Shown piece after piece: positions 7,745 to 64,000 of a stretch of DNA of 64,000 nucleotides. Source of the stretch: Ignavibacteriota bacterium (lineage in GTDB: Bacteria; Bacteroidota; Ignavibacteria; UBA10030; UBA6906); NCBI GenBank assembly GCA_003157485.1, contig PMJQ01000101.1:11443-75442 (forward strand), written 5' to 3'. Under the pieces are notes generated by a model, which ran no database searches, had not been told where the DNA came from, and saw only the letters and a list, made by a program, of their open reading frames with translations. Position 1 is the stretch's first letter, and every line of letters begins with the position of its first letter. A program made the position numbers and the translations under genes.

Positions 7745-7778
7745 CCGTACCGCGGTTTCCGTTCGATTGAGAAACAAT

Positions 7779-7811
7779 AGTCAGGGTGAGCAACCCCCTG
7801 ACTATTTTTTT
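7779..7811 (+). terminator. rho-independent terminator after the PorV-like gene
   Basis: Stem AGTCAGGG (7779-7786) pairs with CCCTGACT (7796-7803) around a 9-nt loop, followed by A and T7 (7805-7811). Confidence 0.8.
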
Positions 7812-7837
7812 CCCGGGTTGCGCCACGGAGCACAGAC

Positions 7838-31476: not shown

Positions 31477-31489
31477 TCGGAACGGGCTC

Positions 31490-43527: not shown

Positions 43528-44910
43528 ATGGACGAAACAACGATGGCCTATGATACGCTTCTCATACCGGACACATCAGGATTCACGTTTGGCAGGGCCC
43601 CGAAGCCGGTCGAGTGCGGATCGGGTCTGAATGTCGGGGGCGGGAAGGTCTTTCCCGAGCTGAACTTCACGCTCCCCCCGATGGCGATTACGGCGGGGAC
43701 ATGGCAGTCCGTCATGGCCGAATACAGGGAGATCGGAGAGATGATACTGCGCGCGGCCCCGAGGCTCCGTCTCCCGGGCCTCATGGTGGAATTCGAGCTC
43801 CTTCCCCCGATGACTGAGACGCCGGAGTGGGGGGCGGAGATTGTGACGCTCCTGCACGAGACGCTCCGGCGCCTGCATGAAGAGAGCGGTATTCCCTGCG
43901 CGCTCCGCGTGACGCCGACCGACATAAGGGACATGGAACGCCCCCCGCTCCTCCGCCGGGGGCGCTCGTGGGAGGCGCTGTGCGTTTCTCTCACCTCGTG
44001 CGCGCGCGCGGGTGCGGATCTCCTTTCGATCGAATCGGTCGGCGGCAAGGAAGTGCACGACCAGTCTCTCCTCTACGGGGACGTGCACGGAATGATCTTC
44101 GCCCTGGGCGTCCTTGCTCCGCGTGACATGGAATTTCTCTGGGACGCGATCGTGCGGATCTGCAAAGAGACTGGGGTCGTCCCCGGTGCCGACTCGGCGT
44201 GCGGATTTGCGAACACTGCGATGCAGCTGGCTGGACAGGGGATGCTCCCCGAGGTCCTGGCTGCCGTCGTACGCGCCGCCTCCGCGGTCAGGAGCCTCGT
44301 CGCATTCTCGCGCGGGGCCGTGGGCCCTTCCAAGGATTGTGCGTACGAAGGACCTGTGATCAAGGCCATCACCGGAGCTCCGATCTCCATGGAAGGGAAA
44401 TCGGCGTCATGCGCGCATTTCAGCCCGGTGGGGAATATCGCCTCCGCGCTGTGCGACCTCTGGAGTAACGAATCGGTCCAAAACGTCAGGCTCCTCTCCG
44501 GATCCGCCCCCGAAGCGTTTCTGGAATCTCTTGCGTACGACTGCCGGGTCATGAACCAGGCGCTCCGCAGTGGGCGTGAGAGGGAGTACCGCGACCTCCT
44601 TGTCGAATCTGATGTCCATCTGAGCCCACAGGCGCTTGTCCTCTCCCCGGATTCCACGATCAGGATTGCGGAGTCTATCGTCCGGGAAACGACGCCGTAT
44701 CGTCAGACATGCTCCGCGGCCCGTGAGGCGGTCACGCTGATCCGGGATGCGATACGCGAGGAGAGGCTCGTTATCCCGAAGCGGGAGTCGCAGTGGCTCG
44801 ACAGGATAGAATCCGCTCTCGATTCTCTTCCTGAAAAGGAAGAGGAGCTGATCGCGCCCATGATCGGGAGCTACGGCAGCCTGTTCACCCCGTCGAGTTA
44901 CGGACTCTGA
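43528..44910 (+). CDS. mtaB: MtaB-family methyltransferase (methanol:corrinoid methyltransferase homolog)
   Basis: Full-length collinear similarity to my recollection of Methanosarcina MtaB: 'ADLLSIESVGGKEVHD', 'GADSACGFANTAM', 'AVGPSKDCAYEGPVIKAITGAPISMEGKSASCAH', 'CDLWSNESVQ', 'LAYDCRVMNQAL', C-terminal '...PSSYGL'. Confidence 0.8.
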   Translation: MDETTMAYDTLLIPDTSGFTFGRAPKPVECGSGLNVGGGKVFPELNFTLPPMAITAGTWQSVMAEYREIGEMILRAAPRLRLPGLMVEFELLPPMTETPEWGAEIVTLLHETLRRLHEESGIPCALRVTPTDIRDMERPPLLRRGRSWEALCVSLTSCARAGADLLSIESVGGKEVHDQSLLYGDVHGMIFALGVLAPRDMEFLWDAIVRICKETGVVPGADSACGFANTAMQLAGQGMLPEVLAAVVRAASAVRSLVAFSRGAVGPSKDCAYEGPVIKAITGAPISMEGKSASCAHFSPVGNIASALCDLWSNESVQNVRLLSGSAPEAFLESLAYDCRVMNQALRSGREREYRDLLVESDVHLSPQALVLSPDSTIRIAESIVRETTPYRQTCSAAREAVTLIRDAIREERLVIPKRESQWLDRIESALDSLPEKEEELIAPMIGSYGSLFTPSSYGL

Positions 44911-45908: not shown

Positions 45909-47048
45909 ATGAGAGAGCTTGCGATCCCCCTGGATCACCCTTCACCCGACGGGGGCGAATTCATCGACATACTCTCGGGGCGGTCCCCTTCACACAGGGT
46001 CCCTCTCGTCGAATATCTCGTGGACGACGCAGTGATGAAGCCGGTCCTGGAGGAGATGCTCGGACGGCGGTGGGTCAACCCCGGCAGTGACAGGGAGTCG
46101 CAGCGGGCCTCTCTCGACAACCGCATTGAATTCTGGTACCGGATGGGATACGATTTCATCCGGCACGAGGAGAGCCTCCCGCTGCCGGAGAAAAAACTCA
46201 TGGGGCATGATCCGGCGATGCCCGTGGCGCAGAAGGCGCCGCCGGATGCGCCGGCTCGTCTGTGGGCGGACGAGCATCAGGGTGCGATCATGTCATGGGA
46301 GGATTTTGAGAAGTATCCCTGGCCTGCCGTGGAAGAATTTGATTTCTTCGGATACGAGTACCTGAGCCGGAACCTCCCGGAGGGGATGGGGCTCGTCGCC
46401 TGCCACGCCGGAGGGGTGTTCGAACATCTCTCATGGATCATGTCTCTCGAGGGGCTCTCTGTGGCGCTTCACGAAGATCCGGAGCTCGTCAGAGCGGTCG
46501 CAGACAGGCTGGGGCATCTGATGGAGGGGTTCTACAGGCACGTCCTTGATCTCGATAACCTCATCGCCGTCTTCCCCGGGGACGACATGGGGTACAAGTC
46601 GGCGACGCTCGTGGCGCCCGGGATTCTCCGGACGTATGTTCTCCCCTGGCATGCGAGGTTTGCGGCGATGACGCACGCGAAGAATCTTCCCTATTACCTC
46701 CACTCCTGCGGCAGGGTGGATGCGGTCATGGAGGACCTGATCACGGACGTGGGAATCGACGGAAAACATTCGTTCGAGGACGGCATCGTCCCCGTCCAGG
46801 ATTTCCAGGCCAGGTACGGCGGCAGGATCGCTGTCCTCGGGGGGATCGACATCAACATACTCGCAGGCCCTTCCCCTGATGACGTGCGGCACGCGACGAG
46901 CCGGCTGATCACCGTGTGCGGATCGCGCGGCCGCTACGCCGTCGGATCGGGGAACTCCATCCCGAGTTACGTCCCATGCGGAAATTATCTCGCCATGATC
47001 GACGAGGCGCACCGCGCGAACAATGATATGCTCTCTCCCCGGAGATAA
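45909..47048 (+). CDS. uroporphyrinogen decarboxylase (UROD) family protein, MtaA/CmuA-like, with H-x-C-G motif
   Basis: 'VFPGDDMGYKSATLVAPGILRTYVLPWHARF', 'YYLHSCGRVDAVMEDLITDVGIDGKHSFED', 'AVGSGNSIPSYVPCGNYLAM'. Confidence 0.75.
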   Translation: MRELAIPLDHPSPDGGEFIDILSGRSPSHRVPLVEYLVDDAVMKPVLEEMLGRRWVNPGSDRESQRASLDNRIEFWYRMGYDFIRHEESLPLPEKKLMGHDPAMPVAQKAPPDAPARLWADEHQGAIMSWEDFEKYPWPAVEEFDFFGYEYLSRNLPEGMGLVACHAGGVFEHLSWIMSLEGLSVALHEDPELVRAVADRLGHLMEGFYRHVLDLDNLIAVFPGDDMGYKSATLVAPGILRTYVLPWHARFAAMTHAKNLPYYLHSCGRVDAVMEDLITDVGIDGKHSFEDGIVPVQDFQARYGGRIAVLGGIDINILAGPSPDDVRHATSRLITVCGSRGRYAVGSGNSIPSYVPCGNYLAMIDEAHRANNDMLSPRR

Positions 47049-51088: not shown

Positions 51089-52117
51089 ATGCCGAACCGT
51101 TTTCTCCGCGCCGTGAATCTCGAACCCTCCGACGGGGTCCCGTTTGTCCCCGCGGTGTACGAGCACAAAGCCTGGTTCATCGGCAGGACCCCTTCGGAGG
51201 TCTGCCGCGAAGGCTCGCTTCTCGTCGAGTCCGTCCTCGCGGAATACGAAGCGCTCCATCCCGACGCACTCGTCGTGGGGATTGACGTGTACAACGTGGA
51301 GGCGGAGGCCTGCGGATGCCCCGTGACGTATTTCGAACCGCCGGATTCGTCAATCCCGTCACTGGCGCCCGGCTCGGAGGTCATCACGGAAGAGAGGCGT
51401 CCCCGCACGCTCGTCCTCCCGGATCCTTCGGATGCGGGAAGGATGCCCATGATTCTCGAATCGACGGCAAGAGCGAGGGACGCTCTGGGACCGGAAGTCG
51501 AAGTCATGGGGGCGCTCTCTGCGCCGTTCAGCCTTGCGGCCTCGCTGATGGGGGGGGCGAACCTCTTCATGGCAATGGCGGCGGAACCCGCCGCCGCGCA
51601 CAGCGCAATCAGCTTTGCCGCGGATGTCGTTACACGGTACGGGCAGGCATTCGCCCGGCGGGGGCTCCAGGCGGCGCTCTTTGACTCCCAGGCCTCTCCC
51701 GGACTCATCTCTCCGCGCTCGTACAGGGAATTTGTCCTCGGACCCACTCAGAGGGTCGTGAGGGACCTCACAAGCGCGGGGATGAGCTACGTCCCCCTCG
51801 TTATCGGGGGAAACACCGATCCGATCGTGGAGGCGTATGTCGAGACGGGGGGGAACTACCTCCTGTGCGACGGCGGGGGGTCGGTGGAACGGTTTCTCCC
51901 GGCGTGCTGCGCTGCGAAGCGCGCATTCAGGAGGAATATCCCCGCCCCGTTCCTCCTCTCCGCATCCGTACCGGAAATTGAACAGAGGGTCCGGGAGGAG
52001 ATAGAATCCGCCGGGGGGTACGAGGGATTCATGCTCGGCACGGGGATCGTTCCGTACGGCATACCGACGGAGAAAATACTTGCCGCGCGCCCTGCGCGAT
52101 CGCAGAATCATTCATAA
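51089..52117 (+). CDS. UROD family protein, MtaA/CmuA-like, lacking the H-x-C motif
   Basis: 'FLRAVNLEPSDGVPFVPAVYEHKAWFIG', 'YNVEAEACGCPVTYFE', 'MGALSAPFSLAASLMG', 'LFDSQASPGLISPRSYREFVL'. 'LVIGGNT' occupies the position of H-x-C-G. Confidence 0.7.
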   Translation: MPNRFLRAVNLEPSDGVPFVPAVYEHKAWFIGRTPSEVCREGSLLVESVLAEYEALHPDALVVGIDVYNVEAEACGCPVTYFEPPDSSIPSLAPGSEVITEERRPRTLVLPDPSDAGRMPMILESTARARDALGPEVEVMGALSAPFSLAASLMGGANLFMAMAAEPAAAHSAISFAADVVTRYGQAFARRGLQAALFDSQASPGLISPRSYREFVLGPTQRVVRDLTSAGMSYVPLVIGGNTDPIVEAYVETGGNYLLCDGGGSVERFLPACCAAKRAFRRNIPAPFLLSASVPEIEQRVREEIESAGGYEGFMLGTGIVPYGIPTEKILAARPARSQNHS

Positions 52118-52142: not shown

Positions 52143-54467
52143 ATGCCCACGCTCCGCCAGTTTCTCTCAACGATGAACGTCATCGCATGCACACCTTCCG
52201 GCCCGCTCGTCGAAAAGACCGTCGCACGCGCCCTCCTCGCCTCCGCCCCGGGGGCGGAGATCCGTGAATCCCCGGGTCTCGGCGCCCCCTCCGGGACCAT
52301 ACGCGTCGCCGTCGTCCCGGATGGAACGCGAGGGGAGTCGATTCACCCCGCGCTTGCGGGGAAGACAGGCTGGATGATCATCCGGGTGAAGGGGGGGGTC
52401 GAGATCCTCACGGACAGGGAGCATCTCCTCTACGGGCTCTACACGCTTGTCGATGAGGAATTGCATGCGGCCGACGCCGCCTCGCTCCGCGAAGGGCGGA
52501 TATTCACAAGTGCGTTCCCCGAGGTGCGTCCGGTGTTTGACTTATTTCTGACGCAGTGGGGGCGCACCGTCGGGAAATTCGACAGGGAAGAGCATATCCG
52601 GACAATGGCGCGCATGGGAAATTCCCACGTCGAGGTGAACGGGCTTGCCTTTCACGTTCCGTTCGAGAGGGGGCCGAAGGGGGAGCTCCTCCACCGCTTT
52701 TATACGTATGCGCCGGCGCTCGATCAGTTTGTGACAAGCCGCCTGAACAAGGGGTCTTACGACGATGATTACCTGCAGGCGAACCTGAATTATCTCAGAA
52801 CCAACGCGGCGCTGGCGGAGAAATACGGCCTGACGCCGGGGATTGTCTGCTTTGAGCCGAGGTCTGTCCCCGACGGGCTCCTGGAGCGCTACCCTGTGCT
52901 GCGCGGCGCGCGCGTCGATCATCCGATGAGGAGCTTCCATCCCCGCTACAATCTTTCCGTGGCGCATCCGGTGGTGCTTGAACACTACGCCGAAATGATG
53001 GAGAATCTGATGAAAGAGGTCCCCCGTCTCGGGTACATGTCGGTCTGGTCCAACGACAGCGGCGCCGGATTCGAGTACACGAGTTCCCTCTACGTGGGAA
53101 GGAACGGGGGAGGATACCTTGTCCGGGAATGGCTTGCGGCGAAGGACATCGCCGCCGCCGCCGCGTTCAATCTCGTCCGGTTCATGAAAACGCTCCGGGA
53201 CGCGGGAAGGAAGACCAATCCACGGTTCCGCACGCTCATCCGGCTCGAACCGTTCTGGGAGGAGCTGGACCACATCTGGAAGCTCCTCGAGGACGGGCTC
53301 GACGTCGAGGTGTCATCCCTTCTGACACGGGGGTGGGAGCTCTCATACAAGCACCCGAAGTACGAGGAGGTTCCCCAGATACACGGTACCGCCCTGTTCA
53401 GCCAGTTTGCGGAGTCGGAGAAGCCGGTCATGCAGGAGCTCGTGGCGAAGGGCGCACGTGCCGACATCTATTTCGTTCCGGAGATACTCGGGAACCACGA
53501 GCCGCTCATGGGGATCCCATTCCCGCGCCTGGTCCATGAAAAACTGGCGGCCATGCGGCGGGCCGGGGTGGCCGCCGCGGCGTATCAGGGAGGGCCGACC
53601 CCTCCGTCGTTCGTTCCGTACAACATCAACCAGGAGATCGTCCGCGCGTATCAGTTCGATCCGGGCATGGATCTCGACGCATTCATGAGGCGGAAGGCGG
53701 AGGAGTGGGCGGGGCGCTCGCTCGCCGGAGATCTCGTGAAGCTCTGGGAACTCTCCGACGACGCGTTCCGTTCGTTCCCCATACCGATCTGGATTTATGC
53801 GGGATGGGGCGTCTGGTACCGCCTGTTCATCCGTCCCATCGTCCCGAACATCGAAGCAATCCCGGAAAAGGAGCGGGAATATTACGAGAACTTCCTCCTG
53901 GCAACGACGCACAACAGGACGCGCGTGGATTTCCGGTACGACGTCGGGTTCGATCTCATTGAGCCTGAACGCGCGTGGAAGGCCGTCGCGCACATGGACG
54001 GGGACCTCCTCCCGGCGATGGCGAATATACTCGATCTCGTGGCGGCGATGGAGAAGAGGGCCGTGACGCCCGCGGAGAGGGCGCTCGTGGAGGACCAGCG
54101 CGACCGGATGGTCGCGCTCAAATGCTGGTACAGGACGGAGCGGAACGTCACGGCATGGGTCGCGGGCGTTCACGGGTACATGGAATCGAAGGACGAATCG
54201 TTCCGGAAGAAATGCCGCGCCCTGCTGAAGGGGATGGTCCTGGACGAAATCGACAACACAAAGGATCTGATCAGGCTCTGGGAGACGGCCCGGACGAACT
54301 GGATGATGGTTTCGGATGTGGGTGAAACGACGTTCGTCTACTATAAGAACATGGGGGAGCTCATGAAGAAGAAAATTGCCCTTATGCAGGGGCATGAAAA
54401 CGATGAGCCGTATGTGGATCCCGACTTTCAGTGGCGCGTCCCCGGGTTCACACCGGAAAGCAGGTAG
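52143..54467 (+). CDS. uncharacterised ~770-aa cytoplasmic protein, family A copy 2 (paralog of 8886..11114)
   Basis: See 8886..11114. The N-terminal 'GWMIIRVKGGVEILTDREHLLYGLYTLVDE' is reminiscent of GH20b/GH67N-type N-domains (impression only). No signal peptide. Confidence 0.6.
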   Translation: MPTLRQFLSTMNVIACTPSGPLVEKTVARALLASAPGAEIRESPGLGAPSGTIRVAVVPDGTRGESIHPALAGKTGWMIIRVKGGVEILTDREHLLYGLYTLVDEELHAADAASLREGRIFTSAFPEVRPVFDLFLTQWGRTVGKFDREEHIRTMARMGNSHVEVNGLAFHVPFERGPKGELLHRFYTYAPALDQFVTSRLNKGSYDDDYLQANLNYLRTNAALAEKYGLTPGIVCFEPRSVPDGLLERYPVLRGARVDHPMRSFHPRYNLSVAHPVVLEHYAEMMENLMKEVPRLGYMSVWSNDSGAGFEYTSSLYVGRNGGGYLVREWLAAKDIAAAAAFNLVRFMKTLRDAGRKTNPRFRTLIRLEPFWEELDHIWKLLEDGLDVEVSSLLTRGWELSYKHPKYEEVPQIHGTALFSQFAESEKPVMQELVAKGARADIYFVPEILGNHEPLMGIPFPRLVHEKLAAMRRAGVAAAAYQGGPTPPSFVPYNINQEIVRAYQFDPGMDLDAFMRRKAEEWAGRSLAGDLVKLWELSDDAFRSFPIPIWIYAGWGVWYRLFIRPIVPNIEAIPEKEREYYENFLLATTHNRTRVDFRYDVGFDLIEPERAWKAVAHMDGDLLPAMANILDLVAAMEKRAVTPAERALVEDQRDRMVALKCWYRTERNVTAWVAGVHGYMESKDESFRKKCRALLKGMVLDEIDNTKDLIRLWETARTNWMMVSDVGETTFVYYKNMGELMKKKIALMQGHENDEPYVDPDFQWRVPGFTPESR

Positions 54468-54468
54468 C

Positions 54469-55644
54469 GTGCGGCTCGATCCGGGCCGGATACTTGTCGC
54501 CCCCGATTCGTTCAAGGGGACGTTGACCGCGTCGGAAGCCGCGATGGCGATGGGAAAAGGGGTCCGGCGCGCCCTTCCGGGCGCTTCCGTGAGGCTGTTC
54601 CCCGTCTCTGACGGCGGGGAGGGGTTTATCGATGCGCTCGTCCCTCCCGCGCGGGGGACACAGGAGTGGACCGAAGTCCGCGGACCGCTCCCCTCCCAGC
54701 GTGTCCGGGCCCGGTGGGCGCTCGTGGCGAAGGGAACGACGGCGGTGATCGAGATGGCGGCTGCGTCGGGACTGGCGCTTGTCCCTCCGGACCGGCGCGA
54801 TCCATGCGTGACAACCACGTTCGGCGTCGGCGAGCTCATACGGCACGCGCTCGATCGCGGTGTCGGGTCAATGCTCATCGGGATCGGCGGGAGCGCGACA
54901 AACGACGGGGGGACCGGCATGGCGTCCGCACTCGGCGTGAAGTTTCTGGATTCCTCGGGCGGCCTTCTTGCGCAGGGAGGGAGCGCGCTCGCCGGACTCC
55001 GCCGGATTGACGCGGGCGGTCTCGACGCGCGCCTTGCGAGGACCGTCGTGACGGTCGCCTGCGACGTGACAAGCCCGCTCACTGGGCCCGGAGGGGCATC
55101 ACGAGTGTTCGCCCCGCAGAAGGGGGCCGGCCCGGCCGACGTCGAGATCCTCGAGCGCGCGATGATTCGTTACACGGATGTACTCAGCGAACAGCTCGGC
55201 ATCGATGTCGGCAGTATTCCCGGAAGCGGAGCTGCGGGGGGACTCGGGGCCGGACTTGTTGCGTTCTGCGGCGCGGCGCTTGAATCCGGGATCGACGTCG
55301 TTCTCGACGCCACCGGGTTCGACGCCGCTCTCTCTTCGTGCGATCTCGTCCTGACGGGTGAGGGACGGGTCGATTCCCAGACCCGGCACGGCAAGGCGCT
55401 CGCCGGGATCCTCCGCCGCGCCGCAGGAGCGCGCGTCCCCGTTGCGTGCGTTGCCGGGAGCGTCCAGGGCCCGCACGCGGAGTACACCGGGGAGAAGGGG
55501 TTTATCGCGCTGGAGTCGCTCGCGGACGGCCCCGGCGGCCCGGATGCTGCAATGGCGAACGCGGCGCGTACACTCGAGGAAAGGACCCGATCGATGCTGC
55601 TCACGCTCACCGCCCGGAAGGCGGCGGAAGGCTCACACGGATGA
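54469..55644 (+). CDS. glycerate kinase (GlxK/GarK family)
   Basis: GTG start 1 nt after the upstream stop. 'ILVAPDSFKGTLTASEAA', 'FPVSDGGEGF', 'IGIGGSATNDGGTGMASALG', 'SGAAGGLGAG', 'DLVLTGEGRVDSQT'. Confidence 0.85.
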   Translation: MRLDPGRILVAPDSFKGTLTASEAAMAMGKGVRRALPGASVRLFPVSDGGEGFIDALVPPARGTQEWTEVRGPLPSQRVRARWALVAKGTTAVIEMAAASGLALVPPDRRDPCVTTTFGVGELIRHALDRGVGSMLIGIGGSATNDGGTGMASALGVKFLDSSGGLLAQGGSALAGLRRIDAGGLDARLARTVVTVACDVTSPLTGPGGASRVFAPQKGAGPADVEILERAMIRYTDVLSEQLGIDVGSIPGSGAAGGLGAGLVAFCGAALESGIDVVLDATGFDAALSSCDLVLTGEGRVDSQTRHGKALAGILRRAAGARVPVACVAGSVQGPHAEYTGEKGFIALESLADGPGGPDAAMANAARTLEERTRSMLLTLTARKAAEGSHG

Positions 55645-57425
55645 TCGACCAGATCAAGCACGTCAACGTCGTCGACTACTGCGTCATCGCGGGCTATCTG
55701 CTCATGCTGACGGGGACCGGGTTGTACGTCACGAAGTTCAACAAGAACGCCGACGACTATTTCAAGGGGGGCGGGAAGATCCCGTGGTGGATCTCCGGAC
55801 TTTCGACGTTTGTCGCCGGGTTTTCGGCGTTCATGTTTGTCGGGGCCGCGGGGTATACGTACAGGAAGGGGATCGGATCGGCCGTCCTCTTCACGAGCGC
55901 GTTCTGGGGGTACGGCATGGGGTATTTTCTGTACGCCGTGCGCTGGAAGAGGGCACGTCTCTCCTCGCCGATGGAGTTCCTGACCCGCAGGTTCTCCCAG
56001 GGAACGACGTATTACTATACGCTGCTGTCGATCGTCCCCGCGGTGATGGGGCTCGGGCTCGGGATCTACATCCTGTGCATATTCGTTGCCACCGCGATGG
56101 GGATCATGGACCTCTCGGTGACGATCGGCTTTCTCACGCTGAGCGGGCTCGAGCTTTCGATGGTTGTCACGGGGATCGTCCTCCTGATTTACACGAGCGC
56201 CGGCGGCCTGTGGGCGGTGATGATAACCGATGTCATGCAGTTCTTCATTATCCTCATCGTCACGCTTCTCATTTCCCCCCTCGCGTTCTTCGCGCTGGGG
56301 GGGAGCGGGGGGTTCTTCCATGCGTTTGCGCGGATCGCACACGAGACGCCCCCCGGGTACCTCAGTTTCGCCGATGTGCTGCGGAACCCGCTCTTCTATC
56401 TCGCGTACCTGTTCAGCACGTTTATCGGGTACAACGCGGCATGGCATATCGGGCAGCGGTACTACAGCGTGCCGACGGAACGCGACGCCAGGAAGATCTC
56501 GGTCCTCTGCGCGCTCCTGATGCTGACGGTACCGCTCTTCTGGCTTGCGCCGACGATGGCCGCGCGCGTCCTGTTCCCCGACATGGCCCGCCTCTGGCCG
56601 CAGCTCTCGGAGCCGTCGGAGGCGTCGTTCGTGACACTGGCCCTCTCCCTCCTCCCCAACGGGCTGATCGGGCTGACGATATCGGCGATCCTGGCGGCGA
56701 CGATGACGCATACGGACACTGCTTTGAACTACCTCGCCTCCATACTCGTCCGGGACGTCTACATGAAGCTCAGGAAAACGTTCTCTCACTCGGTGCCGGG
56801 AGAGCGCCGCCAGCTCTTCGTCGCGCGCGTGACGACGTTCACGCTCGGGTTCCTCGCGATCGCGACGGCGATCATCGTCCAGCGGACAAAGGGGGTCTTC
56901 GATTTCGCCCTGCTCTATTATTCGTGGTTCGGCCCGTCTATGATGACCCCCGTCATGCTCGGATTTCTCTACACGAAGACCCCTTCCTGGTCGGCGAGCG
57001 CCGCGGCCACCGTGAGCCTTGCCGTCGTCCTGGCATGCAACACGGTGATCGACGTGCGTCCCTACCAGTACGAGGTGAACATATTCGGCGGGATACTCGT
57101 CTCGGCCGCGGTGTTTTTCCTCTCCGCTTTCTGGCCGGAGAAAAATCCGGCCTCGCGCGCGAGGATCGAGGCATTTGCGGCCGATCTCAGGACTCCCGTG
57201 ACGGGGACGAGCTCCGTGTGGGACAGGAACGCGCTCCACTCCTATCTCGTCGTCGGCGTCCTGACCGTGATCATCGGCTGTGCGCTTCTTGCGCTCACGA
57301 TCGTTCCCGCCGGCATCGAAGTGCGGACGCTGACGCTTGTCATGGGAATCGCGACGATGGCGCTCGGCGGCGGTATGCTCCTCTATTTCCGGAGTCAGCT
57401 TGCGAAAGGGACAGAAAATGGATAA
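55641..57425 (+). CDS. sodium:solute symporter (SSS) family transporter
   Basis: 'NADDYFKGGGKIPWWISGLSTFVAGFSAFMFVGAAGYTY'. Polytopic. ATGA overlap upstream. Confidence 0.85.
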   Translation: MIDQIKHVNVVDYCVIAGYLLMLTGTGLYVTKFNKNADDYFKGGGKIPWWISGLSTFVAGFSAFMFVGAAGYTYRKGIGSAVLFTSAFWGYGMGYFLYAVRWKRARLSSPMEFLTRRFSQGTTYYYTLLSIVPAVMGLGLGIYILCIFVATAMGIMDLSVTIGFLTLSGLELSMVVTGIVLLIYTSAGGLWAVMITDVMQFFIILIVTLLISPLAFFALGGSGGFFHAFARIAHETPPGYLSFADVLRNPLFYLAYLFSTFIGYNAAWHIGQRYYSVPTERDARKISVLCALLMLTVPLFWLAPTMAARVLFPDMARLWPQLSEPSEASFVTLALSLLPNGLIGLTISAILAATMTHTDTALNYLASILVRDVYMKLRKTFSHSVPGERRQLFVARVTTFTLGFLAIATAIIVQRTKGVFDFALLYYSWFGPSMMTPVMLGFLYTKTPSWSASAAATVSLAVVLACNTVIDVRPYQYEVNIFGGILVSAAVFFLSAFWPEKNPASRARIEAFAADLRTPVTGTSSVWDRNALHSYLVVGVLTVIIGCALLALTIVPAGIEVRTLTLVMGIATMALGGGMLLYFRSQLAKGTENG

Positions 57426-58212
57426 TCAGGTTCCGGTTGTCATCGTAACGGGCGCCAGCCGCGGGCTCGGACGGGGTATCGCGCTCCGGCTCGCGGACCT
57501 CGGCTATTCTGTCGCAATCAATTACGCGGGAAATGCAGCGGCGGCGGCGGAGACCGCCGCTCTGTGCGACAAAAAGCGGATTCTCCCGGCGCAGAAATTT
57601 CTCCCCGTGAAGGCGGACGTGGGGTCCGGAGCGGACAGGGCCGCGCTCGTCGAGCGGACGCTCGGGGAGTTCGGGCGGATCGACGCGCTTGTCAACAATG
57701 CCGGCGTCGGGCCTGGCACGAGGGCCGATATCACGGAAGCGTCCCCGGCGGTATTCCGGGAGGTCATGTCGACGAACCTCGAAGGCCCGTACTTCCTCAC
57801 ACAGGCGGTGGCGAACTACTGGCTGAAGGAGAAGCCCGCCCCCCTGCTGCGGCGCGGGTTTGTCGTGGTATTCAATACCTCGATATCGGCGCTCACGGCG
57901 TCGCTCAACAGGGGAGAGTACTGCGTGTCGAAAGCCGGGCTCTCCATGGGGGCGAAGCTCTGGGCGCTCCGGCTGGCGGGGGAAGGGATACAGGTGTTCG
58001 AGCTCCGCCCCGGCATCATGGCGACGGACATGACGGCGGGTGTGAAAGGAAAATACGACGCCATGATTGCCTCCGGGGGAGTGCCGATGAAACGCTGGGG
58101 GACGCCGGAGGATGTGGGGTTTGCTGTCGGCGCCATCCTGTCCGGCGATTTTCCCTACTCGACCGGCGAAATCATCTACGTTGACGGCGGGCTGCACCTG
58201 CCGGGACTGTGA
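57418..58212 (+). CDS. short-chain dehydrogenase/reductase (SDR), 3-oxoacyl-ACP reductase / KduD-like
   Basis: 'VVIVTGASRGLGRGIA', 'LVNNAG', 'YCVSKAG' (YxxxK). 8-nt overlap with the symporter gene. Confidence 0.85.
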   Translation: MDNQVPVVIVTGASRGLGRGIALRLADLGYSVAINYAGNAAAAAETAALCDKKRILPAQKFLPVKADVGSGADRAALVERTLGEFGRIDALVNNAGVGPGTRADITEASPAVFREVMSTNLEGPYFLTQAVANYWLKEKPAPLLRRGFVVVFNTSISALTASLNRGEYCVSKAGLSMGAKLWALRLAGEGIQVFELRPGIMATDMTAGVKGKYDAMIASGGVPMKRWGTPEDVGFAVGAILSGDFPYSTGEIIYVDGGLHLPGL

Positions 58213-58218
58213 GGAATT

Positions 58219-59598
58219 ATGATCGCGATTGACACATCGATTGACGCGGGGGATCTCCGTGCCCCGCTTGAGAACCTCTTTGCCCTCTCCGGCGCCAAAA
58301 TCATGTCGCTCCGGAGGAGATGGAATCCTTCGAAGGGAGCCCCGGTATTCACGGTGGACGGGCTCTACACGTCGCGGGGGTGGACCGAATGGACTGAAGG
58401 GTTCATGTTCGGGTCCGCTCTCCTGCAGTTCGACGCGACGGGGGAGAAGGAATTCCTGGAGATCGGCCGCACGGGCACGGTGAACGAAATGGCGCCCCAT
58501 GTCAGTGCAACGGGGGTGCATGACCACGGGTTCAACAATGTGAGCACGTACGGTAATCTCCACAGGATGATGCGCGAGGGGCTCATCCCGCATAACGCAT
58601 GGGAAATGGATTTTTATGCGCTCGCGCTCAAGGTGAGCGGCGCCGTCCAGGCCTCCCGGTGGACGGACTTGGCGAAGGGTGGGGGGTACATCTGTTCATT
58701 CAACGGTCCTCATTCCCTCTTCGCAGACACTGTCCGCTCGCTCCGTTCGCTCGCGCTCGCCCACCAGCTCGGCCACGTGCTCGCGGGGGAAAGGGACGTG
58801 AAGATATCGCTCCTCGGGCGTCTGATCGCCCATGCGGAGGCGACAGCGAAATACAACGTCTACTTCGGGGAAGGTCGCGATATATACGACGTGCGTGGCC
58901 GCGTGGCCCACGAGTCGATATTCAACACGAGGGACGGTTCCTACCGGTGCCCCTCATCGCAGCAGGGATATTCCCCCTTCACGACGTGGACCCGCGGGCT
59001 GGCCTGGATCATCTGCGGATTTGCCGAGGAGGCCGAGTTCCTTGCCTCCCTCCCGGAGGGCTCGTTCGGGGAGTACGGGGGGAAATCGAATGTGCTGGGC
59101 GCCTTCCTGAGAACTGCGGAGGCGACAGCCGACTTCTACATCGAGAACACTCCCGCCGACGGCGTCCCCTACTGGGATACCGGCGCGCCGGGGCTCGCGC
59201 GGCTGGGCGACTACCTCGCGCGCCCCGCCGATCCGTTCAACGGGGAGGAGCCCGTGGACAGTTCGGCTGCGGCGATTGCCGCGCAGGGGCTCGTCAGGCT
59301 CGGTATGCATCTGAAGTCCGCGGGACGCGGGGCCGACGGTAACAGGTACCTCCGTGCGGGGCTCACGACTGCGCGGACCCTTTTCTCCGACCCGTACCTG
59401 AGCCGTGCGGAGTCGCACCAGGGACTCCTGCTCCACTCGGTGTATCACCGTCCCAACGGATGGGATCACGTAGGTGCAGGGAGGAGAATCCCCTGCGGCG
59501 AATCCTCCATGTGGGGGGATTACCACGCCAGGGAACTCGCGCTCCTCGTAAGAAGGATGGGAGAGAAGAAGCCGTACTACAGGTTCTTTATCGGCTAG
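58219..59598 (+). CDS. GH88/GH105-type unsaturated uronyl hydrolase
   Basis: 'GVHDHGFNNVSTYGNL', 'TTWTRGLAWIICGF', 'DSSAAAIAAQGLVRLG', 'GESSMWGDYHARELALL'. No signal peptide. Confidence 0.75.
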   Translation: MIAIDTSIDAGDLRAPLENLFALSGAKIMSLRRRWNPSKGAPVFTVDGLYTSRGWTEWTEGFMFGSALLQFDATGEKEFLEIGRTGTVNEMAPHVSATGVHDHGFNNVSTYGNLHRMMREGLIPHNAWEMDFYALALKVSGAVQASRWTDLAKGGGYICSFNGPHSLFADTVRSLRSLALAHQLGHVLAGERDVKISLLGRLIAHAEATAKYNVYFGEGRDIYDVRGRVAHESIFNTRDGSYRCPSSQQGYSPFTTWTRGLAWIICGFAEEAEFLASLPEGSFGEYGGKSNVLGAFLRTAEATADFYIENTPADGVPYWDTGAPGLARLGDYLARPADPFNGEEPVDSSAAAIAAQGLVRLGMHLKSAGRGADGNRYLRAGLTTARTLFSDPYLSRAESHQGLLLHSVYHRPNGWDHVGAGRRIPCGESSMWGDYHARELALLVRRMGEKKPYYRFFIG

Positions 59599-59614
59599 GG
59601 GAGTGTGCGTGCGG

Positions 59615-59641
59615 CCTCGCGGAAGAACGCGTCGAGGTTTT
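59615..59641 (+). terminator. weak candidate terminator after the GH88-like gene
   Basis: CCTCG(CG)...(CG)tCGAGG imperfect stem followed by TTTT (59638-59641), in the 96-nt convergent gap. Confidence 0.3.
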
Positions 59642-59694
59642 CGTGCGGCGCATCGCCAGAGGCCTCTGCGCGTTTCTGACAATCTCTGAGAGGG

Positions 59695-61212
59695 TCATCG
59701 ATCTCCGGTTTCCGTGGGGAATCTCATTTCTTCGACGTAGACATCCTGGAAATCGCCGTCGGAGTCAAGCGCGATATGGCGCACGCCGGAGGCGAGTTCG
59801 TCGTAGGCCCCGGGCTCGTCGAAGAGCGCCCGCTTTGCCCCCCGCAGCGCGGTATTCCCCGAAGGGACGATCCTGTCGGGGGGGAAATTCACAAGCCCGA
59901 TTGTTTTCGCGCTCGCGGTGTTGACGTAGTTGCCGAAAGCGCCCGCCAGGTAGACGCGCGCGATATCCCCCTCCGCAAGTCCGGACTTCCCGAGCAGTAT
60001 GCGGACCCCTGCCGCTATCGCCCCCTTTGCAAGCTGGAGCTCGCGGATGTCCGTCTGCGTCAGTGCCACCGGGTCCGCAATCATGATGGACGGCTCGCGC
60101 CCGGTGAACCGGCCCCCCGGAGTGATGCGCCCCAGGCGCAGGAGGACCGCCGCGGCGTCCACAAGCCCGCTTCCGCAGATCCCCCGCGGTGCGACGTCGC
60201 CGAGCGTCCTGCACGCGAGTCCTCCCCCCGGACCTGGCTCGACTTCCGCGATCGCCCCCGTCGCTGCCCGCATTCCCATGGAGATCCTCGCTCCTTCAAA
60301 CGCGGGGCCTGCCGCTGTGGAGCAGCAGAGTAGTCCTCCCCGGGATCCGATCACGATTTCGCCGTTCGTCCCGAGGTCGATCAGGCAGAGGGGGACGTCG
60401 CTCCTGTGGAGGTTGACCGCGAGTATCCCCGCGAGTATGTCGCTCCCCACGAACCCTCCAAGGCAGGGGAGAAACCGTATGCTCCCTCCGGCGCTCCACC
60501 CGAGATCCTCCGCGCGGAATGGCTCCATGCCGTCGCGGACCGGCTCGAACGGGTAACGGGAGAGCGGCGTGCAGTCGATCCCGCAGAAGAGGTGATGCAT
60601 CACCGTGTTGCCGACGAGAACGACGTCCGTGAGCGACGCGGGGTCCGCCTTCCCCTTCCGGAGGAGTTCGCCGATCATTGCGCCTGTCTGGGTACGTATC
60701 AGCGCGGTGAGGAGCTCCTGTTTTTTCTCGTTGACGGCGAACCCGACGCGGCTCATGACGTCCGCGCCGTGCCTGGCCTGTGCATTGAGCGCAGTGGCGA
60801 CGGCGAGGACGTCGGCGGTGCGGAGATCAAGGAGCTGGGCCACGAGCGTTGTTGTCCCCACGTCGATGGCGATGCCGAGCCCGCTCCGCGGCGTGAATGC
60901 GAATGGCGATTCGTCGGAGAGTATCGCCGCTTCCCACTGGGCGAGCTCGAGCGTGAGGTCTTCCTCCGCCCGGCAGTGGCATGCAAGGCGCCAGCCGGCG
61001 TCGAGCTCCCCGGGCGAGAGTATCCGCTCCTGCTCGGCCGTGACCGGGAGCGTTCCTTCGAGAACGCGCACGCGGCAGCCCTTGCAGCGGGCGCGCCCGC
61101 CGCAGGGGAATTCCACGCCGTACGGGAAGAGGACCTCCTGCAGCGGCGAACCGCGGGGGACCTCGAACGCGGCGCCGAGCGGCCGGAGCGTGATGCGGAC
61201 GCTCGCCGTCAT
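59695..61212 (-). CDS. RACo-type reductive activator of corrinoid proteins (2Fe-2S ferredoxin domain + ASKHA/DUF4445 ATPase)
   Basis: N-terminal 'FPCGGRARCKGCRVRVLEG...WRLACHC'. ASKHA 'GIAIDVGTTTLVAQLLDL', 'LIDLGTNGEIVIG', 'STAAGPAFEGARISMGMRA'. Confidence 0.85.
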   Translation of the reverse strand: MTASVRITLRPLGAAFEVPRGSPLQEVLFPYGVEFPCGGRARCKGCRVRVLEGTLPVTAEQERILSPGELDAGWRLACHCRAEEDLTLELAQWEAAILSDESPFAFTPRSGLGIAIDVGTTTLVAQLLDLRTADVLAVATALNAQARHGADVMSRVGFAVNEKKQELLTALIRTQTGAMIGELLRKGKADPASLTDVVLVGNTVMHHLFCGIDCTPLSRYPFEPVRDGMEPFRAEDLGWSAGGSIRFLPCLGGFVGSDILAGILAVNLHRSDVPLCLIDLGTNGEIVIGSRGGLLCCSTAAGPAFEGARISMGMRAATGAIAEVEPGPGGGLACRTLGDVAPRGICGSGLVDAAAVLLRLGRITPGGRFTGREPSIMIADPVALTQTDIRELQLAKGAIAAGVRILLGKSGLAEGDIARVYLAGAFGNYVNTASAKTIGLVNFPPDRIVPSGNTALRGAKRALFDEPGAYDELASGVRHIALDSDGDFQDVYVEEMRFPTETGDR

Positions 61213-61958
61213 GTGTCGGCCTTCTCCGCGCGTATCAGATCATTCGTATAGTCCGGGGCGATTCTGAACCCGGGGGGGACGGTGAGGAACTCCCGTTCAT
61301 CCCACGGCCCGTTGACGAGGGCGCGGAGAAGCCGGATGTCCCCCTGTTCGGTTGTGAACTCCAGCCCTTTTTCCCCGGCCCGCTTCCTCGCCGTGGCAAG
61401 GAACGAGCCGTCGGGTTCCAGTCCCATGGCGATGAACGTCAGCTTCTTGTAGTGTTTTGTCTGGTCGCAGAGCTGGTCGTAGAGGTACTGCGCGTTGTCT
61501 TCGCCGTATTTTTCGACGAGCTCCCCGTATGTCATGTCCATCCCGTTGGCGTGCTGTATCGAAAGCTGGCGGAGGTCTCCGGTCGCTTCCCCCCGTTCGA
61601 TCCACCCGGTCGTGAGGAAATACGTCCCCGGATTTTTCCGGAAATACTCTTCGTAGCGCTCCCTGCTCCCGAAGAAGAGCGTCATGCAGTCGTGTGCGCG
61701 GGGGACGACAAGAGGCAGCCCGCGGGCGGCGAGCCCGGCGATCCCGTTGTTGCAGAGCCCGTAGCCGAGGAGGATCATGTCGCAGAGCGATTCGTCCACG
61801 CGGTCGACGGCGGCCTGGAGCCGCTCGCGCATGCCGGAGCATCCGATGTCGTGGAGACCCTTGGGGAGAAACACGAGGTCCACCTGGTGGGGAGAGCGCG
61901 CGGCCGTCTCGCAGAGCTCGCGCGTAAACACTTCGCAGCTGATGAGCGTGAGTCGCAT
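61209..61958 (-). CDS. DUF1638 domain protein (typically linked to corrinoid methyltransferase operons)
   Basis: 'MRLTLISCEVFTRELCE', 'ILLGYGLCNNG', 'VVPRAHDCMTLFFGS'. 4-nt overlap with the RACo start. Confidence 0.7.
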   Translation of the reverse strand: MRLTLISCEVFTRELCETAARSPHQVDLVFLPKGLHDIGCSGMRERLQAAVDRVDESLCDMILLGYGLCNNGIAGLAARGLPLVVPRAHDCMTLFFGSRERYEEYFRKNPGTYFLTTGWIERGEATGDLRQLSIQHANGMDMTYGELVEKYGEDNAQYLYDQLCDQTKHYKKLTFIAMGLEPDGSFLATARKRAGEKGLEFTTEQGDIRLLRALVNGPWDEREFLTVPPGFRIAPDYTNDLIRAEKADT

Positions 61959-61982
61959 GCGCGTGCGGCCTCTCCTGTTCGT

Positions 61983-62861
61983 CTAGCGGGCCGGGTGGAG
62001 CGCCGCCGCAAGGGCGCGGATGAATTCCGGTGTCGTGCCGCAGCAGCCGCCGATGAAGTCCGCGCCCGCCCGGCGCAGCGCGAGGGACCCGGCGCTGAAC
62101 TCCTCCGGCGTCGTCCGGTACGTGATATGTCCCTCCGCCATCTCCGGCATCCCCGCGTTCGGCTTGATCCAGAGGGGGAGGGTCGTCGCTTTTCTGAGGC
62201 GTGTGCAGACGGGGATGTATCCTTCGATGCCGAGTCCGCAGTTGGCGCCGATGGCGTCGGCGCCTGCGTCGGCAAGGGCGGCGGCGACCTGTTCGGGGGT
62301 CGTACCCATCATCGTCCGGTCATGCTCTTTGCCCGAATCGAAGACCATGCTCGCGATGACCGGCAGCCCGGTGGTCCGGGCGGCGCGGAGGGCGATCCGC
62401 GCCTCTTCAATATCGGACATCGTCTCGATGAGTATCGCGTCGGCGCCGGCGACGGCGAGCGCATGGCATTGCTCGGCGAATGCCTCCGTGAGCTCGTCCT
62501 CCGTCACTTCCCCGGACATGAGCATTTTCCCGCTCGGCCCGACGGAGGCGAACACCCGCGCCCGCCCGCGGGCGGCCTTCCGCGATATGCCGACTCCGGC
62601 GGCGTTGAGCGCCGCGGCGTCCACCCCCCCTCCGTGGGAGGCGAGCGCGATCCGGTTCGACCGGAACGTGTTCGTCAGGATCACGGCGCTCCCCGCCTCG
62701 ACGTAACGGGAAGCGACCTCTTCCACCCGGTCCGGATGGGAAAGGTTCCAGAGGTCGGGATGCTCTCCCGGTGCCAGGCCCTGTTTCTGAAGCTCGGTCC
62801 CCCATGCGCCGTCCGTGACGACGGGGGCGTGTGCGAGAAGGGACGTGAGAAGGGGATGCAC
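61983..62861 (-). CDS. homocysteine S-methyltransferase domain protein (MetH N-terminal module / BHMT-like)
   Basis: GTG start chosen 10 nt downstream of the corrinoid-protein stop. 'VVTDGAWGTELQK', 'ILTNTFRSN', 'ADAILIETMSD'. Zn-ligand contexts 'IGANCGLG' and 'IGGCCGTTPEFI'. Confidence 0.8.
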   Translation of the reverse strand: MHPLLTSLLAHAPVVTDGAWGTELQKQGLAPGEHPDLWNLSHPDRVEEVASRYVEAGSAVILTNTFRSNRIALASHGGGVDAAALNAAGVGISRKAARGRARVFASVGPSGKMLMSGEVTEDELTEAFAEQCHALAVAGADAILIETMSDIEEARIALRAARTTGLPVIASMVFDSGKEHDRTMMGTTPEQVAAALADAGADAIGANCGLGIEGYIPVCTRLRKATTLPLWIKPNAGMPEMAEGHITYRTTPEEFSAGSLALRRAGADFIGGCCGTTPEFIRALAAALHPAR

Positions 62862-62871
62862 CGGCGTGGCC

Positions 62872-63507
62872 CTACGCCGCGACAAGCCTGCGGGCCAGCG
62901 CGACGGCCGCGTTCGCGTTGCTCGAGTAGCCGTCCGCGCCGATTTCATCGGCGTATTTCTGCGTGACCGGCGCGCCCCCGATCATCACCTTGACGCCGGG
63001 GCGCATCCCCGATTCGTTCAGCTTCTCCACGACGCCCTTCATGGAATGCATCGTCGTCGTCAGGAGGGCGGAGAGCGCGACGAGCGTCGCGTGCTTCTCT
63101 TTTGCCGCGTTGATGAATTTTTCGGGGGAGACGTCGACGCCGAGGTCGATGACTTCGAACCCGGCCCCCTCGAGCATCGCGCCGACGAGGTTCTTGCCGA
63201 TGTCGTGCAGGTCCCCTTGTACCGTGCCGATAACCACCCGTCCGACGGGCTCCGACCCGCGTGCGGACAGAAGAGGCCGGATGAGTTCGAGGGAGGCTTT
63301 CATCGCCCGTGCGGCGATGAGAAGCTCGGGGACGAAATACTCGTTTGCCTCGTAGCGGCGGCCGACTTCGTTCATCGCGGGGATCATCGTGTCGTCAACG
63401 AGGGCCTGGGGGTTCACCCCGGAGGCGAGGCTCGTCTGTGTGATTTCTTTCGCGGCTTTGGCGTTGCCGTTGAGTATCGCGTCGTAGAGCGTCTGGATCA
63501 CTGGCAT
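62872..63507 (-). CDS. cobalamin-binding corrinoid protein (MtaC/MtbC/MetH-B12-domain-like)
   Basis: B12-binding-2 cap 'AILNGNAKAAKEITQTSLASGVNPQALVDDTMIPAMNEVGRRY'. 'GTVQGDLHDIGKNLV' (DxHxxG), 'ALSALLTTTM', 'VMIGGAPV'. SD GAGGAG upstream. Confidence 0.9.
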   Translation of the reverse strand: MPVIQTLYDAILNGNAKAAKEITQTSLASGVNPQALVDDTMIPAMNEVGRRYEANEYFVPELLIAARAMKASLELIRPLLSARGSEPVGRVVIGTVQGDLHDIGKNLVGAMLEGAGFEVIDLGVDVSPEKFINAAKEKHATLVALSALLTTTMHSMKGVVEKLNESGMRPGVKVMIGGAPVTQKYADEIGADGYSSNANAAVALARRLVAA

Positions 63508-63527
63508 GGCGTTCTCCTCTCGTTGGG

Positions 63528-64000
63528 TTACAGCGCACCGTATTCGTGAATGGTGTCGTACATTGTGACAATGTTGAGCGTCGGCGTGACAGGCTGGAGA
63601 TTGTGGCAGGGGGCGCAGACCCATCGCGCGCTTCTGAAGATCTCGATGTTCTGGAGAACCTCCCGTCTGACGTCCCCGGCGGACCCGAACGGGAGCGTCT
63701 GCTGGTTGTCCATCGCTCCGTGAAACACGACCCTCTTCCCGAAGTCGCGCACGAGGCCTTCCCGTTCCATTCCCGGACACCGCCATTGTATCGGATTGAG
63801 AAGCTCGATCCCGGTGACGTCGAGAAGATCCGGGATGACCGGGCGCACCGCGCCGTCCGTGTGGTAGAACACGTGGATGCCGTAGCTGCGCGCCAGGTCC
63901 GCCATCTTCTTCTGGTTCGGGAGAAAGAACCTCCGGATCTGCGGGAGGCTCATGAGGAGCGACGTCTGCCCTCCGAGGTCCTCCGCGATGTACGTCACGC
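63528..64000 (-). CDS. UROD family (MtaA/CmuA-like) methyltransferase-type protein, C-terminal part only (runs off the window)
   Basis: 'IAEDLGGQTSLLMSLPQIRRFFLPNQKKMADLARSYGIHVFYHTDGAVRPVIPDLLDVTGIELLNPIQ', 'APCHNLQPVTPTLNIVTMYDTI'. Stop TAA at 63528-63530. Confidence 0.7.
   Translation of the reverse strand, partial: VTYIAEDLGGQTSLLMSLPQIRRFFLPNQKKMADLARSYGIHVFYHTDGAVRPVIPDLLDVTGIELLNPIQWRCPGMEREGLVRDFGKRVVFHGAMDNQQTLPFGSAGDVRREVLQNIEIFRSARWVCAPCHNLQPVTPTLNIVTMYDTIHEYGAL

Follow-up and report, generated by a model that had tools for sequence, protein, structure and literature searches.

A putative methionine synthase operon with a URO-D-family protein as candidate methyl-donor enzyme in an Ignavibacteriota bacterium

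The last 4.3 kb of a 64,000-nucleotide stretch from an Ignavibacteriota bacterium (assembly GCA_003157485.1, contig PMJQ01000101.1, positions 11,443 to 75,442; hereafter the window) carry five minus-strand genes. In transcription order, and as identified with Pfam and NCBIfam, these encode a uroporphyrinogen decarboxylase (URO-D) family protein termed UROD349, a corrinoid protein, a stand-alone homocysteine (Hcy) methyltransferase module, a DUF1638 protein and a RACo-type activase. The reading we favour, with somewhat better than even confidence, is that this operon specifies a multi-protein, corrinoid-dependent methionine synthase which receives its methyl groups from a source other than folate. 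The reading draws on a canonical Hcy module encoded next to the corrinoid protein, on the predicted non-thiol active site of UROD349 and on related operons in which the gene in the donor position is exchanged.

The five-gene operon

The order of the five genes and their placement on the minus strand had been proposed earlier from the letters of the window (the original prediction), and both are borne out by the Pfam coordinates. The operon and its boundary are composed as follows:

63528..64000, minus strand: UROD349, C-terminal approximately 157 residues, cut by the window end (Pfam URO-D, 3.2e-12)
62872..63507, minus strand: corrinoid protein, 211 aa (Pfam PF02607 B12-binding_2, 1.2e-22; PF02310 B12-binding, 2.1e-30)
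61983..62861, minus strand: Hcy module, 292 aa, GTG start called (Pfam S-methyl_trans PF02574, 3.6e-67)
61209..61958, minus strand: DUF1638 protein, 249 aa (Pfam PF07796, 5.7e-36)
59695..61212, minus strand: RACo/RamA-like activase, 505 aa (Pfam Fer2, 6e-08; Raco_middle, 2.5e-46; RACo_C_ter, 4.8e-64)
59599..59694, no strand: convergent intergenic region of 96 bp between the operon and the plus-strand sugar locus (from the coordinates)

The intergenic gaps along this series are 20, 10, 24 and -4 bp, and the five genes are therefore taken as one operon. The corrinoid protein, RACo, the Hcy module and DUF1638 each occur once in the window. An exact look-up of the DUF1638 protein retrieved several metagenome contigs, among them L001, which showed 0 mismatches to the window over 10 kb and was accepted as a valid extension on that ground. 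On L001, UROD349 is complete with 349 aa (7382-8431), extends 578 bp past the window end and is the first gene of the operon. Beyond its 5' end lie 130 bp and a divergently transcribed gene whose 276-aa product is secreted, then FA_hydroxylase and NAGLU. The divergent protein (L001 6421-7251) has a signal peptide and no family match, and is kept in the related loci L010 and L013. A promoter and terminator scan over the operon region gave nothing informative.

By its sequence, the Hcy module is a canonical, MetH-type, stand-alone, homocysteine-binding Zn methyltransferase. Among solved structures its nearest relative is 1q7m, the T. maritima MetH Hcy domain (E = 3.8e-45), and it scores 158 bits with MetH against 70 with BHMT and 59 with MmuM. 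The equivalents of Cys207, Cys272/Cys273 and Glu146 of T. maritima MetH are kept, and the motifs DGAxGTE, TNTF, ETxSD, NC and GGCCGTTPE are all present. The Zn cysteines, the Glu of the ET motif, DGAxGTE and TNTF are invariant across 18 homologs with identity down to 64%. The sequences 'GANCG' and 'GGCCGTTP', which the original prediction had named as Zn contexts, align with the MetH cysteines and, given this invariance, are genuine Zn-ligand motifs.

The set does not make up a full-length MetH: its Hcy and B12 parts are two polypeptides of 292 aa and 211 aa, and neither a pterin nor an activation domain is present. It has instead the composition of a split B12-dependent methionine synthase, with a stand-alone PF02574 module carrying a Cys3 Zn site, a separate corrinoid protein with B12 cap and DxHxxG domain, and a RamA-like activase plus DUF1638 in place of the MetH reactivation domain. 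The MetH activation domain had no match in the window or in 80 related loci. The corrinoid protein combines a B12-binding cap with a Rossmann domain, is MtgC/pyl_corrinoid-like by NCBIfam (209-219 bits), and its DxHxxG...SxL...GG signature begins at residue 99. RACo has an N-terminal [2Fe-2S] ferredoxin domain with the Cys37/43/46/78 pattern, is AcsV/RamA-like by NCBIfam, and is predicted to be a RACo/RamA-like ATP-dependent reductive activase for corrinoid proteins. In DUF1638, Cys8, Cys16, His36, Cys69, His89 and Cys91 are conserved over 36 sequences from several phyla; the conservation of these six Cys/His residues suggests that the protein carries a metal or iron-sulfur site.

At full length UROD349 matches Pfam URO-D with 3e-15 and belongs to a tight family, 64-100% identical among the top 120 matches, whose members are annotated solely as uroporphyrinogen decarboxylase family proteins. 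A sequence search against the PDB found nothing at E<=0.01. The AlphaFold2 (AF2) model, with a predicted local distance difference test (pLDDT) value of 89.6, was placed by Foldseek closest to MtaA of M. mazei (4ay7; template modelling (TM) score 0.67-0.69, 19% identity), followed by true URODs and then by MetE. In a profile alignment the Zn ligands H-x-C...C of MtaA correspond to H239-x-D241...C324/H325 of UROD349 (HTD...CAPCHNLQ in UROD349, HIC...APGCG in MtaA), and the UROD349 residues are invariant in its family. In this superfamily a His-Cys-Cys site is the mark of S-methyltransferases, whereas a change of Cys to Asp/Glu or to non-ligands is that of O-methyltransferases (Kountz and Balskus, PMC10418091), and the O-demethylase methyltransferase 1 (MT1) enzymes MtvB and MtoB are placed in the family tree of UROD349 (PMC8630106). 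UROD349 lacks the His-Cys-Cys Zn site of the MtaA/MtbA/MtsA-type thiol methyltransferases. Its predicted active site (His/Asp/His-Cys) is of the non-thiol, O-type kind that is looked for in the URO-D-family MT1 of a three-component O-demethylase, and the corrinoid protein and RACo-type activase of such a system are in the same cluster. From sequence and model together, UROD349 appears to be a divergent protein of the URO-D/MtaA-CmuA fold which fits a donor-side O-demethylase.

Relatives of the operon and the exchangeable donor position

The family of stand-alone Hcy modules of approximately 290 aa gave 7983 matches at E<=1e-20, and at least 592 stretches of species-representative genomes encode a relative. 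The gene neighbourhoods were investigated in the best 80 of these at least 592 loci, all from metagenome-assembled genomes, by searching their six-frame open reading frames (ORFs) with the seed proteins. The best 80 loci belong to Bacteroidota/Ignavibacteria, Acidobacteriota, Planctomycetota, Verrucomicrobiota, Kiritimatiellales and Spirochaetales, and further to Deltaproteobacteria/Myxococcota, Omnitrophota, Sumerlaeota and Caldithrix.

Linkage was counted in the 43 loci whose flanks reach at least 5 kb on each side, for genes within 6 kb of the Hcy module. A corrinoid protein was found in 30/43 loci, as was a URO-D-family gene, while DUF1638 was present in 22/43, RACo in 21/43 and a pterin-binding gene in 9/43. 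A UROD without a pterin gene was seen in 25/43 loci, a pterin gene without a UROD in 4/43, and both together in 5/43. With 30 loci against 9, linkage to a UROD is the rule and linkage to a pterin-binding gene the minority.

The complete gene order of the window, from UROD349 to RACo, is repeated in Bacteroidota/Ignavibacteria-type relatives with Hcy modules 66-84% identical, usually with one UROD added after RACo. This extra UROD has 320-327 aa and a His-Cys-Cys site, and was located at 13208-14170 in L010 and also in L011, L012, L013, L016, L026 and L036. The genome of the window is without it, since RACo and the convergent gene lie only 96 bp apart. On the same contigs UROD349 and the Hcy module diverge at about equal rates.

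The URODs linked to Hcy modules fall into two types. One is UROD349-like, with H-[STN]-[DC]...H-N-x-Q; the other is a thiol type, with H-x-C...G-C-[ED], which includes a cluster found across phyla (cluster 0) and UROD320 of Bacteroidota. The window operon holds the UROD349-like type only, so that a donor-side O-demethylase fits and a thiol-methylating acceptor enzyme is disfavoured. A thiol-type UROD is located after DUF1638 in most operons of the other phyla, including the folate-type operon L091 described below.

Three Acidobacteriota operons share a common frame, in which a corrinoid protein is followed by the Hcy module, DUF1638, a UROD (b) and RACo. One position in this frame varies:

L045: a UROD349-like gene before the corrinoid protein
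L056: MtaB (PF12176, 550 bits) between the corrinoid protein and the Hcy module
L091: MTHFR and Pterin_bind between the corrinoid protein and the Hcy module

Judged by its genes, L091 is a textbook folate-dependent split methionine synthase, and its layout thereby confirms the methionine-forming role of the Hcy-module family. L045 and L056 in turn indicate that the folate input is exchangeable for an input of UROD type or of methanol type. These comparisons favour a donor slot that can be swapped within one operon frame, and they are the strongest support for the idea of the original prediction, namely a split MetH in which a UROD-family donor-side enzyme stands where the methyl-folate-binding module would be.

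That prediction had also held that no pterin-binding gene is visible, which agrees with all searches made. A pterin profile built from E. coli MetH 346-650 and 13 related ORFs gave no match even at E<=10 to any six-frame ORF of the window, and PF00809 was absent from precomputed Pfam tables covering almost all window genes. The check asked for at the time, an extension of the contig, was carried out with L001 and revealed no pterin gene upstream, so that the refuting condition set there does not arise. Thus no pterin-binding gene was found in the operon, 5' of it, in the 64-kb window or in the 8-kb extension, and likewise no MtrH-like methyltransferase 2 (MT2) of the O-demethylase kind in operon or window, where a PF02574 module takes that place. 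Among the Bacteroidota/Ignavibacteria-type loci, none had a pterin gene within 10 kb.

The adjacent glycan and uronate locus

The remaining part of the window is taken up by a single long carbohydrate locus on the plus strand, with a SusC-like receptor domain, GH38, a heparinase-like lyase, BNR proteins, sugar kinases, an aldolase, dehydratases and two SSF transporters. The features that bear on methyl transfer or substrate supply are given here:

7838..8863, plus strand: core-MetE-like protein, 341 aa, H-x-C/Glu/Cys Zn ligands kept, followed by p742
8886-11114, plus strand: p742, 742 aa, paralog of p774 (38% identical)
43528..44910, plus strand: MtaB-family orphan, methanol:corrinoid methyltransferase-like (PF12176; NCBIfam MtaB, 425 bits)
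45909..47048, plus strand: UROD379, orphan of the URO-D family with H-x-C but no third Cys ligand (NCBIfam, ligand alignment)
51089..52117, plus strand: UROD342, MtaA-like orphan with all three Zn ligands lost (NCBIfam mtaA_cmuA, 74 bits; LVIGGN and GTG at the ligand positions compared with 4ay7)
52143..59598, plus strand: convergent neighbours p774, glycerate kinase, SSF transporter, SDR and p459, kept in relatives with Hcy modules 66-84% identical
52143-54467, plus strand: p774, 774 aa, unclassified, glycoside-hydrolase-like by AF2 fold
58219-59598, plus strand: p459, 459 aa, distantly GH88-like, no Pfam above threshold (PDB match to unsaturated glucuronyl hydrolase, 6.7e-10)

Four orphan corrinoid-type methyltransferase-like genes are thus scattered in the island, and none of them has its own corrinoid protein or activase. 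UROD342 lies directly upstream of p774. Each of the paralogs p742 and p774 (approximately 742-774 aa) is located directly 3' of a MetE-like or UROD-like gene, and neither Pfam nor NCBIfam gave a match for them. In its AF2 model (pLDDT 77.6), p774 has a fold like GH20/GH138/GH89/GH67/GH115 at TM 0.45-0.53, a fold group that includes alpha-galacturonidase and alpha-(4-O-methyl)glucuronidases, and p774 and p742 may therefore represent a glycoside hydrolase family that is new. The two proteins have more than 1400 homologs, the named ones among the matches listed being 'hypothetical protein'. Even when Pfam was searched at E<=10, p774, p742, the divergent 276-aa protein and two proteins of 535 aa and 598 aa had no match. 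Two further pairs of large paralogs, at 13530-15773 / 15770-18046 (47% identical) and at 27567-29363 / 31346-33349 (76%), also lack a family assignment at Pfam thresholds.

The convergent neighbours are likely the substrate-supply genes, and the GH88 match of p459 indicates uronate-containing substrates for the neighbouring locus. The block p774 - SSF - SDR - GH88-like is convergent to the operon in all close relatives. In L095, the sugar block itself takes in an ortholog of UROD349, the genes for the corrinoid protein and the Hcy module, and another UROD, all co-directional with it and flanked by a sugar kinase and an aldose epimerase; within 8 kb neither DUF1638 nor RACo was found. The sugar operon of L095 (1-17050) comprises a p774-like protein, SSF, CN_hydrolase, SDR, a GH88-like protein, an FGGY kinase and an aldose epimerase.

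Non-folate methyl input, its precedents and its alternatives

The favoured route of the methyl group may be depicted as follows: RACo, probably with the help of DUF1638, would use ATP and a low-potential electron to reduce Co(II) to Co(I) on the corrinoid protein. UROD349, with its MtaA-fold TIM barrel and His/Asp/His-Cys site, would bind an O-methylated substrate and polarise the O-CH3 bond, and Co(I) would take the methyl to give CH3-Co(III). The MetH-type module would then hold homocysteine as a Zn thiolate, which takes the methyl to form methionine, and Co(I) would be regenerated. The single corrinoid protein is probably a hub and might work with the MtaB-like, UROD-like and core-MetE-like orphans of the locus as well. 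Judged from the neighbourhood, the donors would likely be methylated or methyl-esterified sugars or uronates, or methanol, from polysaccharide breakdown. The analysis itself establishes the domain identities, the conserved catalytic residues, the operon structure, the lack of a pterin gene in 64 kb and the extension, the conservation across phyla and the variation of the donor slot; the direction of flow, the identity of the donor and the link to sugars are what we infer.

The closest known systems are found in Rhodobacterales. The split methionine synthase of Phaeobacter inhibens consists of a PF02574 module, a corrinoid protein, DUF1638 and a RamA-like (DUF4445) protein, each required genetically, and its pterin-binding subunit is encoded at an unlinked site (Price et al., PMC5764234). 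In Ruegeria pomeroyi, MtgC is the corrinoid hub for MtgB (glycine betaine), MtgD (bidirectional, pterin) and MtgE (Hcy) (Mausz et al., PMC12478193). [quoted passage not shown] These systems (PGA1_c13340/13350/13370/15200/16040; Ruegeria MtgC, MtgD, MtgE, RamA and DUF1638) share with the window operon the same four components, a corrinoid protein able to serve more than one methyl donor and the location of the pterin gene outside the operon. A MetH-type Hcy module that stands alone next to a corrinoid protein has therefore been described before. The systems differ in that the extra donor enzyme of MtgBCDE is an MttB-family glycine betaine methyltransferase and the pterin-binding MtgD is genetically essential, whereas in the window the linked donor candidate is of the URO-D family and a pterin gene was not found in the 64 kb. 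The hosts differ too, an anaerobic glycan degrader here and an aerobic marine alphaproteobacterium there. What is new relative to the known split synthase and corrinoid hub is thus the candidate donor of URO-D type, or elsewhere of MtaB type, in the slot of the folate module, and in Bacteroidota its linkage to glycan catabolism. A literature search for this gene combination found no paper describing it.

The three-component O-demethylases of acetogens, Desulfitobacterium and Methermicoccus (MT1 enzymes OdmB/VdmB/MtvB/MtoB) resemble the window operon in that a single operon combines a small corrinoid protein with a RACo-type activase and a candidate MT1 of the URO-D family. They differ by an acceptor enzyme that is pterin-binding or MtrH-like and forms methyl-tetrahydrofolate (methyl-THF) or methyl-tetrahydromethanopterin, where the window has a MetH-type Hcy module; DUF1638 and a context of carbohydrate rather than aromatic catabolism also set the window apart. 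The core methionine synthases MesA/MesB and core-MetE, like the system proposed here, use a methyl-corrinoid protein and not methyl-folate as the immediate donor to homocysteine, but these enzymes have the MetE fold and the window Hcy module the MetH fold (PF02574) (PMC7857596). The type 1 mlp clusters also have a proposed methyl route into methionine; they differ in their His-Cys-Cys Mlps, their connection to S/Se metabolism and their occurrence mainly in Firmicutes, and a PF02574 module and DUF1638 are not described for them (PMC10418091). An assignment of the window operon to these clusters (Mlp2 and Mlp3 with His-Cys-Cys, a corrinoid protein and Ram) was rejected, the operon having one UROD with a non-thiol site; the His-Cys-Cys UROD occurs only in relatives (UROD320, cluster 0). 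MtoA of Methermicoccus was considered as a precedent for a folate-using UROD and dropped, as it is MtrH-like (PMC8630106).

Several observations weigh against a non-folate synthase fed from sugars. Homocysteine as the sole outlet could not absorb a catabolic methyl flux, and another sink would be needed if methylated sugars were major substrates; either the flux is small or there is another outlet, such as a pterin module elsewhere or the thiol-type UROD of relatives. That His-Cys-Cys UROD belongs to the same operon in most relatives and is missing from the window operon. An ortholog of UROD349 in L094 (8001-9050, 66% identical) has no corrinoid protein or Hcy module within 8 kb. This exception to the operon pattern adjoins an MFS transporter and lies among hydrogenase maturation genes. 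Searches with Rfam at gathering thresholds in the window, L001, L010, L011 and L045 detected no S-adenosylmethionine (SAM) or cobalamin riboswitch, which leaves no regulatory clue, and the operon is not marked by any such riboswitch as methionine-regulated. The proposed sugar link is built on gene neighbourhood and on the medium-confidence fold matches of p774. Other parts of the genome may also encode a MetE, a full-length MetH or a module that binds pterin. Since the known split systems have their pterin module at another site, the missing pterin gene of the operon is no proof that folate has been replaced; 'replacement', the part of the original prediction that goes furthest, is a step we infer, and a model of one hub shared by several donors is at least an equally good fit.

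An ordinary split methionine synthase, with CH3-THF as donor by way of an unlinked pterin subunit and UROD349 as an accessory or alternative input or a protein of the sugar locus, is a possible reading, if a rather unlikely one. The unlinked pterin genes of Phaeobacter and Ruegeria speak for it, as do the nine loci with a pterin gene near the Hcy module, the five of these that also have a UROD, and MTHFR with Pterin_bind in the same frame in L091. It fits poorly with the Bacteroidota/Ignavibacteria-type loci, where the surroundings of the Hcy module are devoid of a pterin gene, with the position of UROD349 as the first operon gene and its conservation equal to that of the Hcy module, and with a UROD linkage far commoner than pterin linkage. 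Very unlikely in our estimate is that UROD349 itself is a non-homologous substitute for the pterin module, binding CH3-THF and loading the corrinoid protein in a complete housekeeping synthase. Its conservation is indeed housekeeping-like (64-100% identity in the top 120 matches, tracking the Hcy module), and a methionine synthase dependent on an environmental donor would be unreliable. However, we know of no URO-D-family enzyme that uses methyl-THF, and in the enzymes known to us a metal site is not needed for the activation of N5-methyl-THF. UROD349-like and pterin genes furthermore occur together in L025, L054, L074, L068 and L088, and redundancy of the two is therefore disfavoured.

On the acceptor side, the PF02574 module could methylate another thiol or selenol, such as sulfide, cysteine or a low-molecular-weight thiol, as a catabolic methyl sink. 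The PF02574 members include selenocysteine and other S/Se methyltransferases, and a catabolic flux needs a sink larger than methionine. We nevertheless regard this as very unlikely: no variation is seen in the DGA loop or in Glu146 of the ET motif, whose residues bind the amino-acid moiety of homocysteine in MetH and BHMT; among characterised proteins the module is nearest to MetH Hcy domains and to stand-alone modules that form methionine; and an ortholog stands beside MTHFR and Pterin_bind in the methionine-synthesis context of L091. Finally, the Hcy module might act alone in the manner of BHMT/MmuM, without cobalamin, or the flow might be reversed, with a sulfonium donor loading the corrinoid protein and UROD349 on the acceptor side. 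The stand-alone PF02574 protein Bmt of Phaeobacter, which is reported to make methionine directly from dimethylsulfoniopropionate (DMSP) or betaine in vitro (PMC12366255), is a precedent. In either version this reading is very unlikely here, as the Hcy gene begins 10 bp after the corrinoid protein gene and ends 24 bp before DUF1638, this linkage is kept across phyla, the bit scores point to MetH rather than to BHMT or MmuM, and UROD349 is without the thiol-type Zn site expected of a known acceptor-side UROD enzyme.

The corrinoid-dependent synthase with non-folate input could be extended to the sugars themselves, although we put this forward tentatively and hold it to be doubtful: glycan-degrading anaerobic Bacteroidota, and with other donors many Acidobacteriota, Planctomycetota and Verrucomicrobiota, would strip methyl groups from O-methylated or methyl-esterified sugars and uronates by cob(I)alamin and pass them straight to homocysteine. 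The candidate demethylases may then be the proteins of URO-D, MtaB and MetE fold encoded beside putative novel glycoside hydrolases. A literature search on the anaerobic demethylation of methylated sugars found nothing relevant, and for 6-O-methyl-galactose an aerobic P450 is the only route known to us. The operon is a candidate answer to how methylated sugars such as 4-O-methyl-glucuronate, 6-O-methyl-galactose, 2-O-methyl-fucose and 2-O-methyl-xylose are handled free of O2, and as a small, defined set of proteins it can be reconstituted in vitro. If the extension to sugars is true, the system would be the first anaerobic sugar demethylase system and a MetH-type methionine synthase that needs no folate. 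If the synthase with non-folate input is right, the idea of a shared corrinoid hub, recently described for betaine in marine aerobes, would be widened to donors of URO-D and MtaB type in anaerobes. The Hcy-module subfamily is present in at least 592 species-level genomes of several phyla. On the same condition, methionine synthesis in many uncultured anaerobes of soil, peat and sediment could be fed directly by environmental O-methyl groups or methanol, and methyl-folate would be bypassed.

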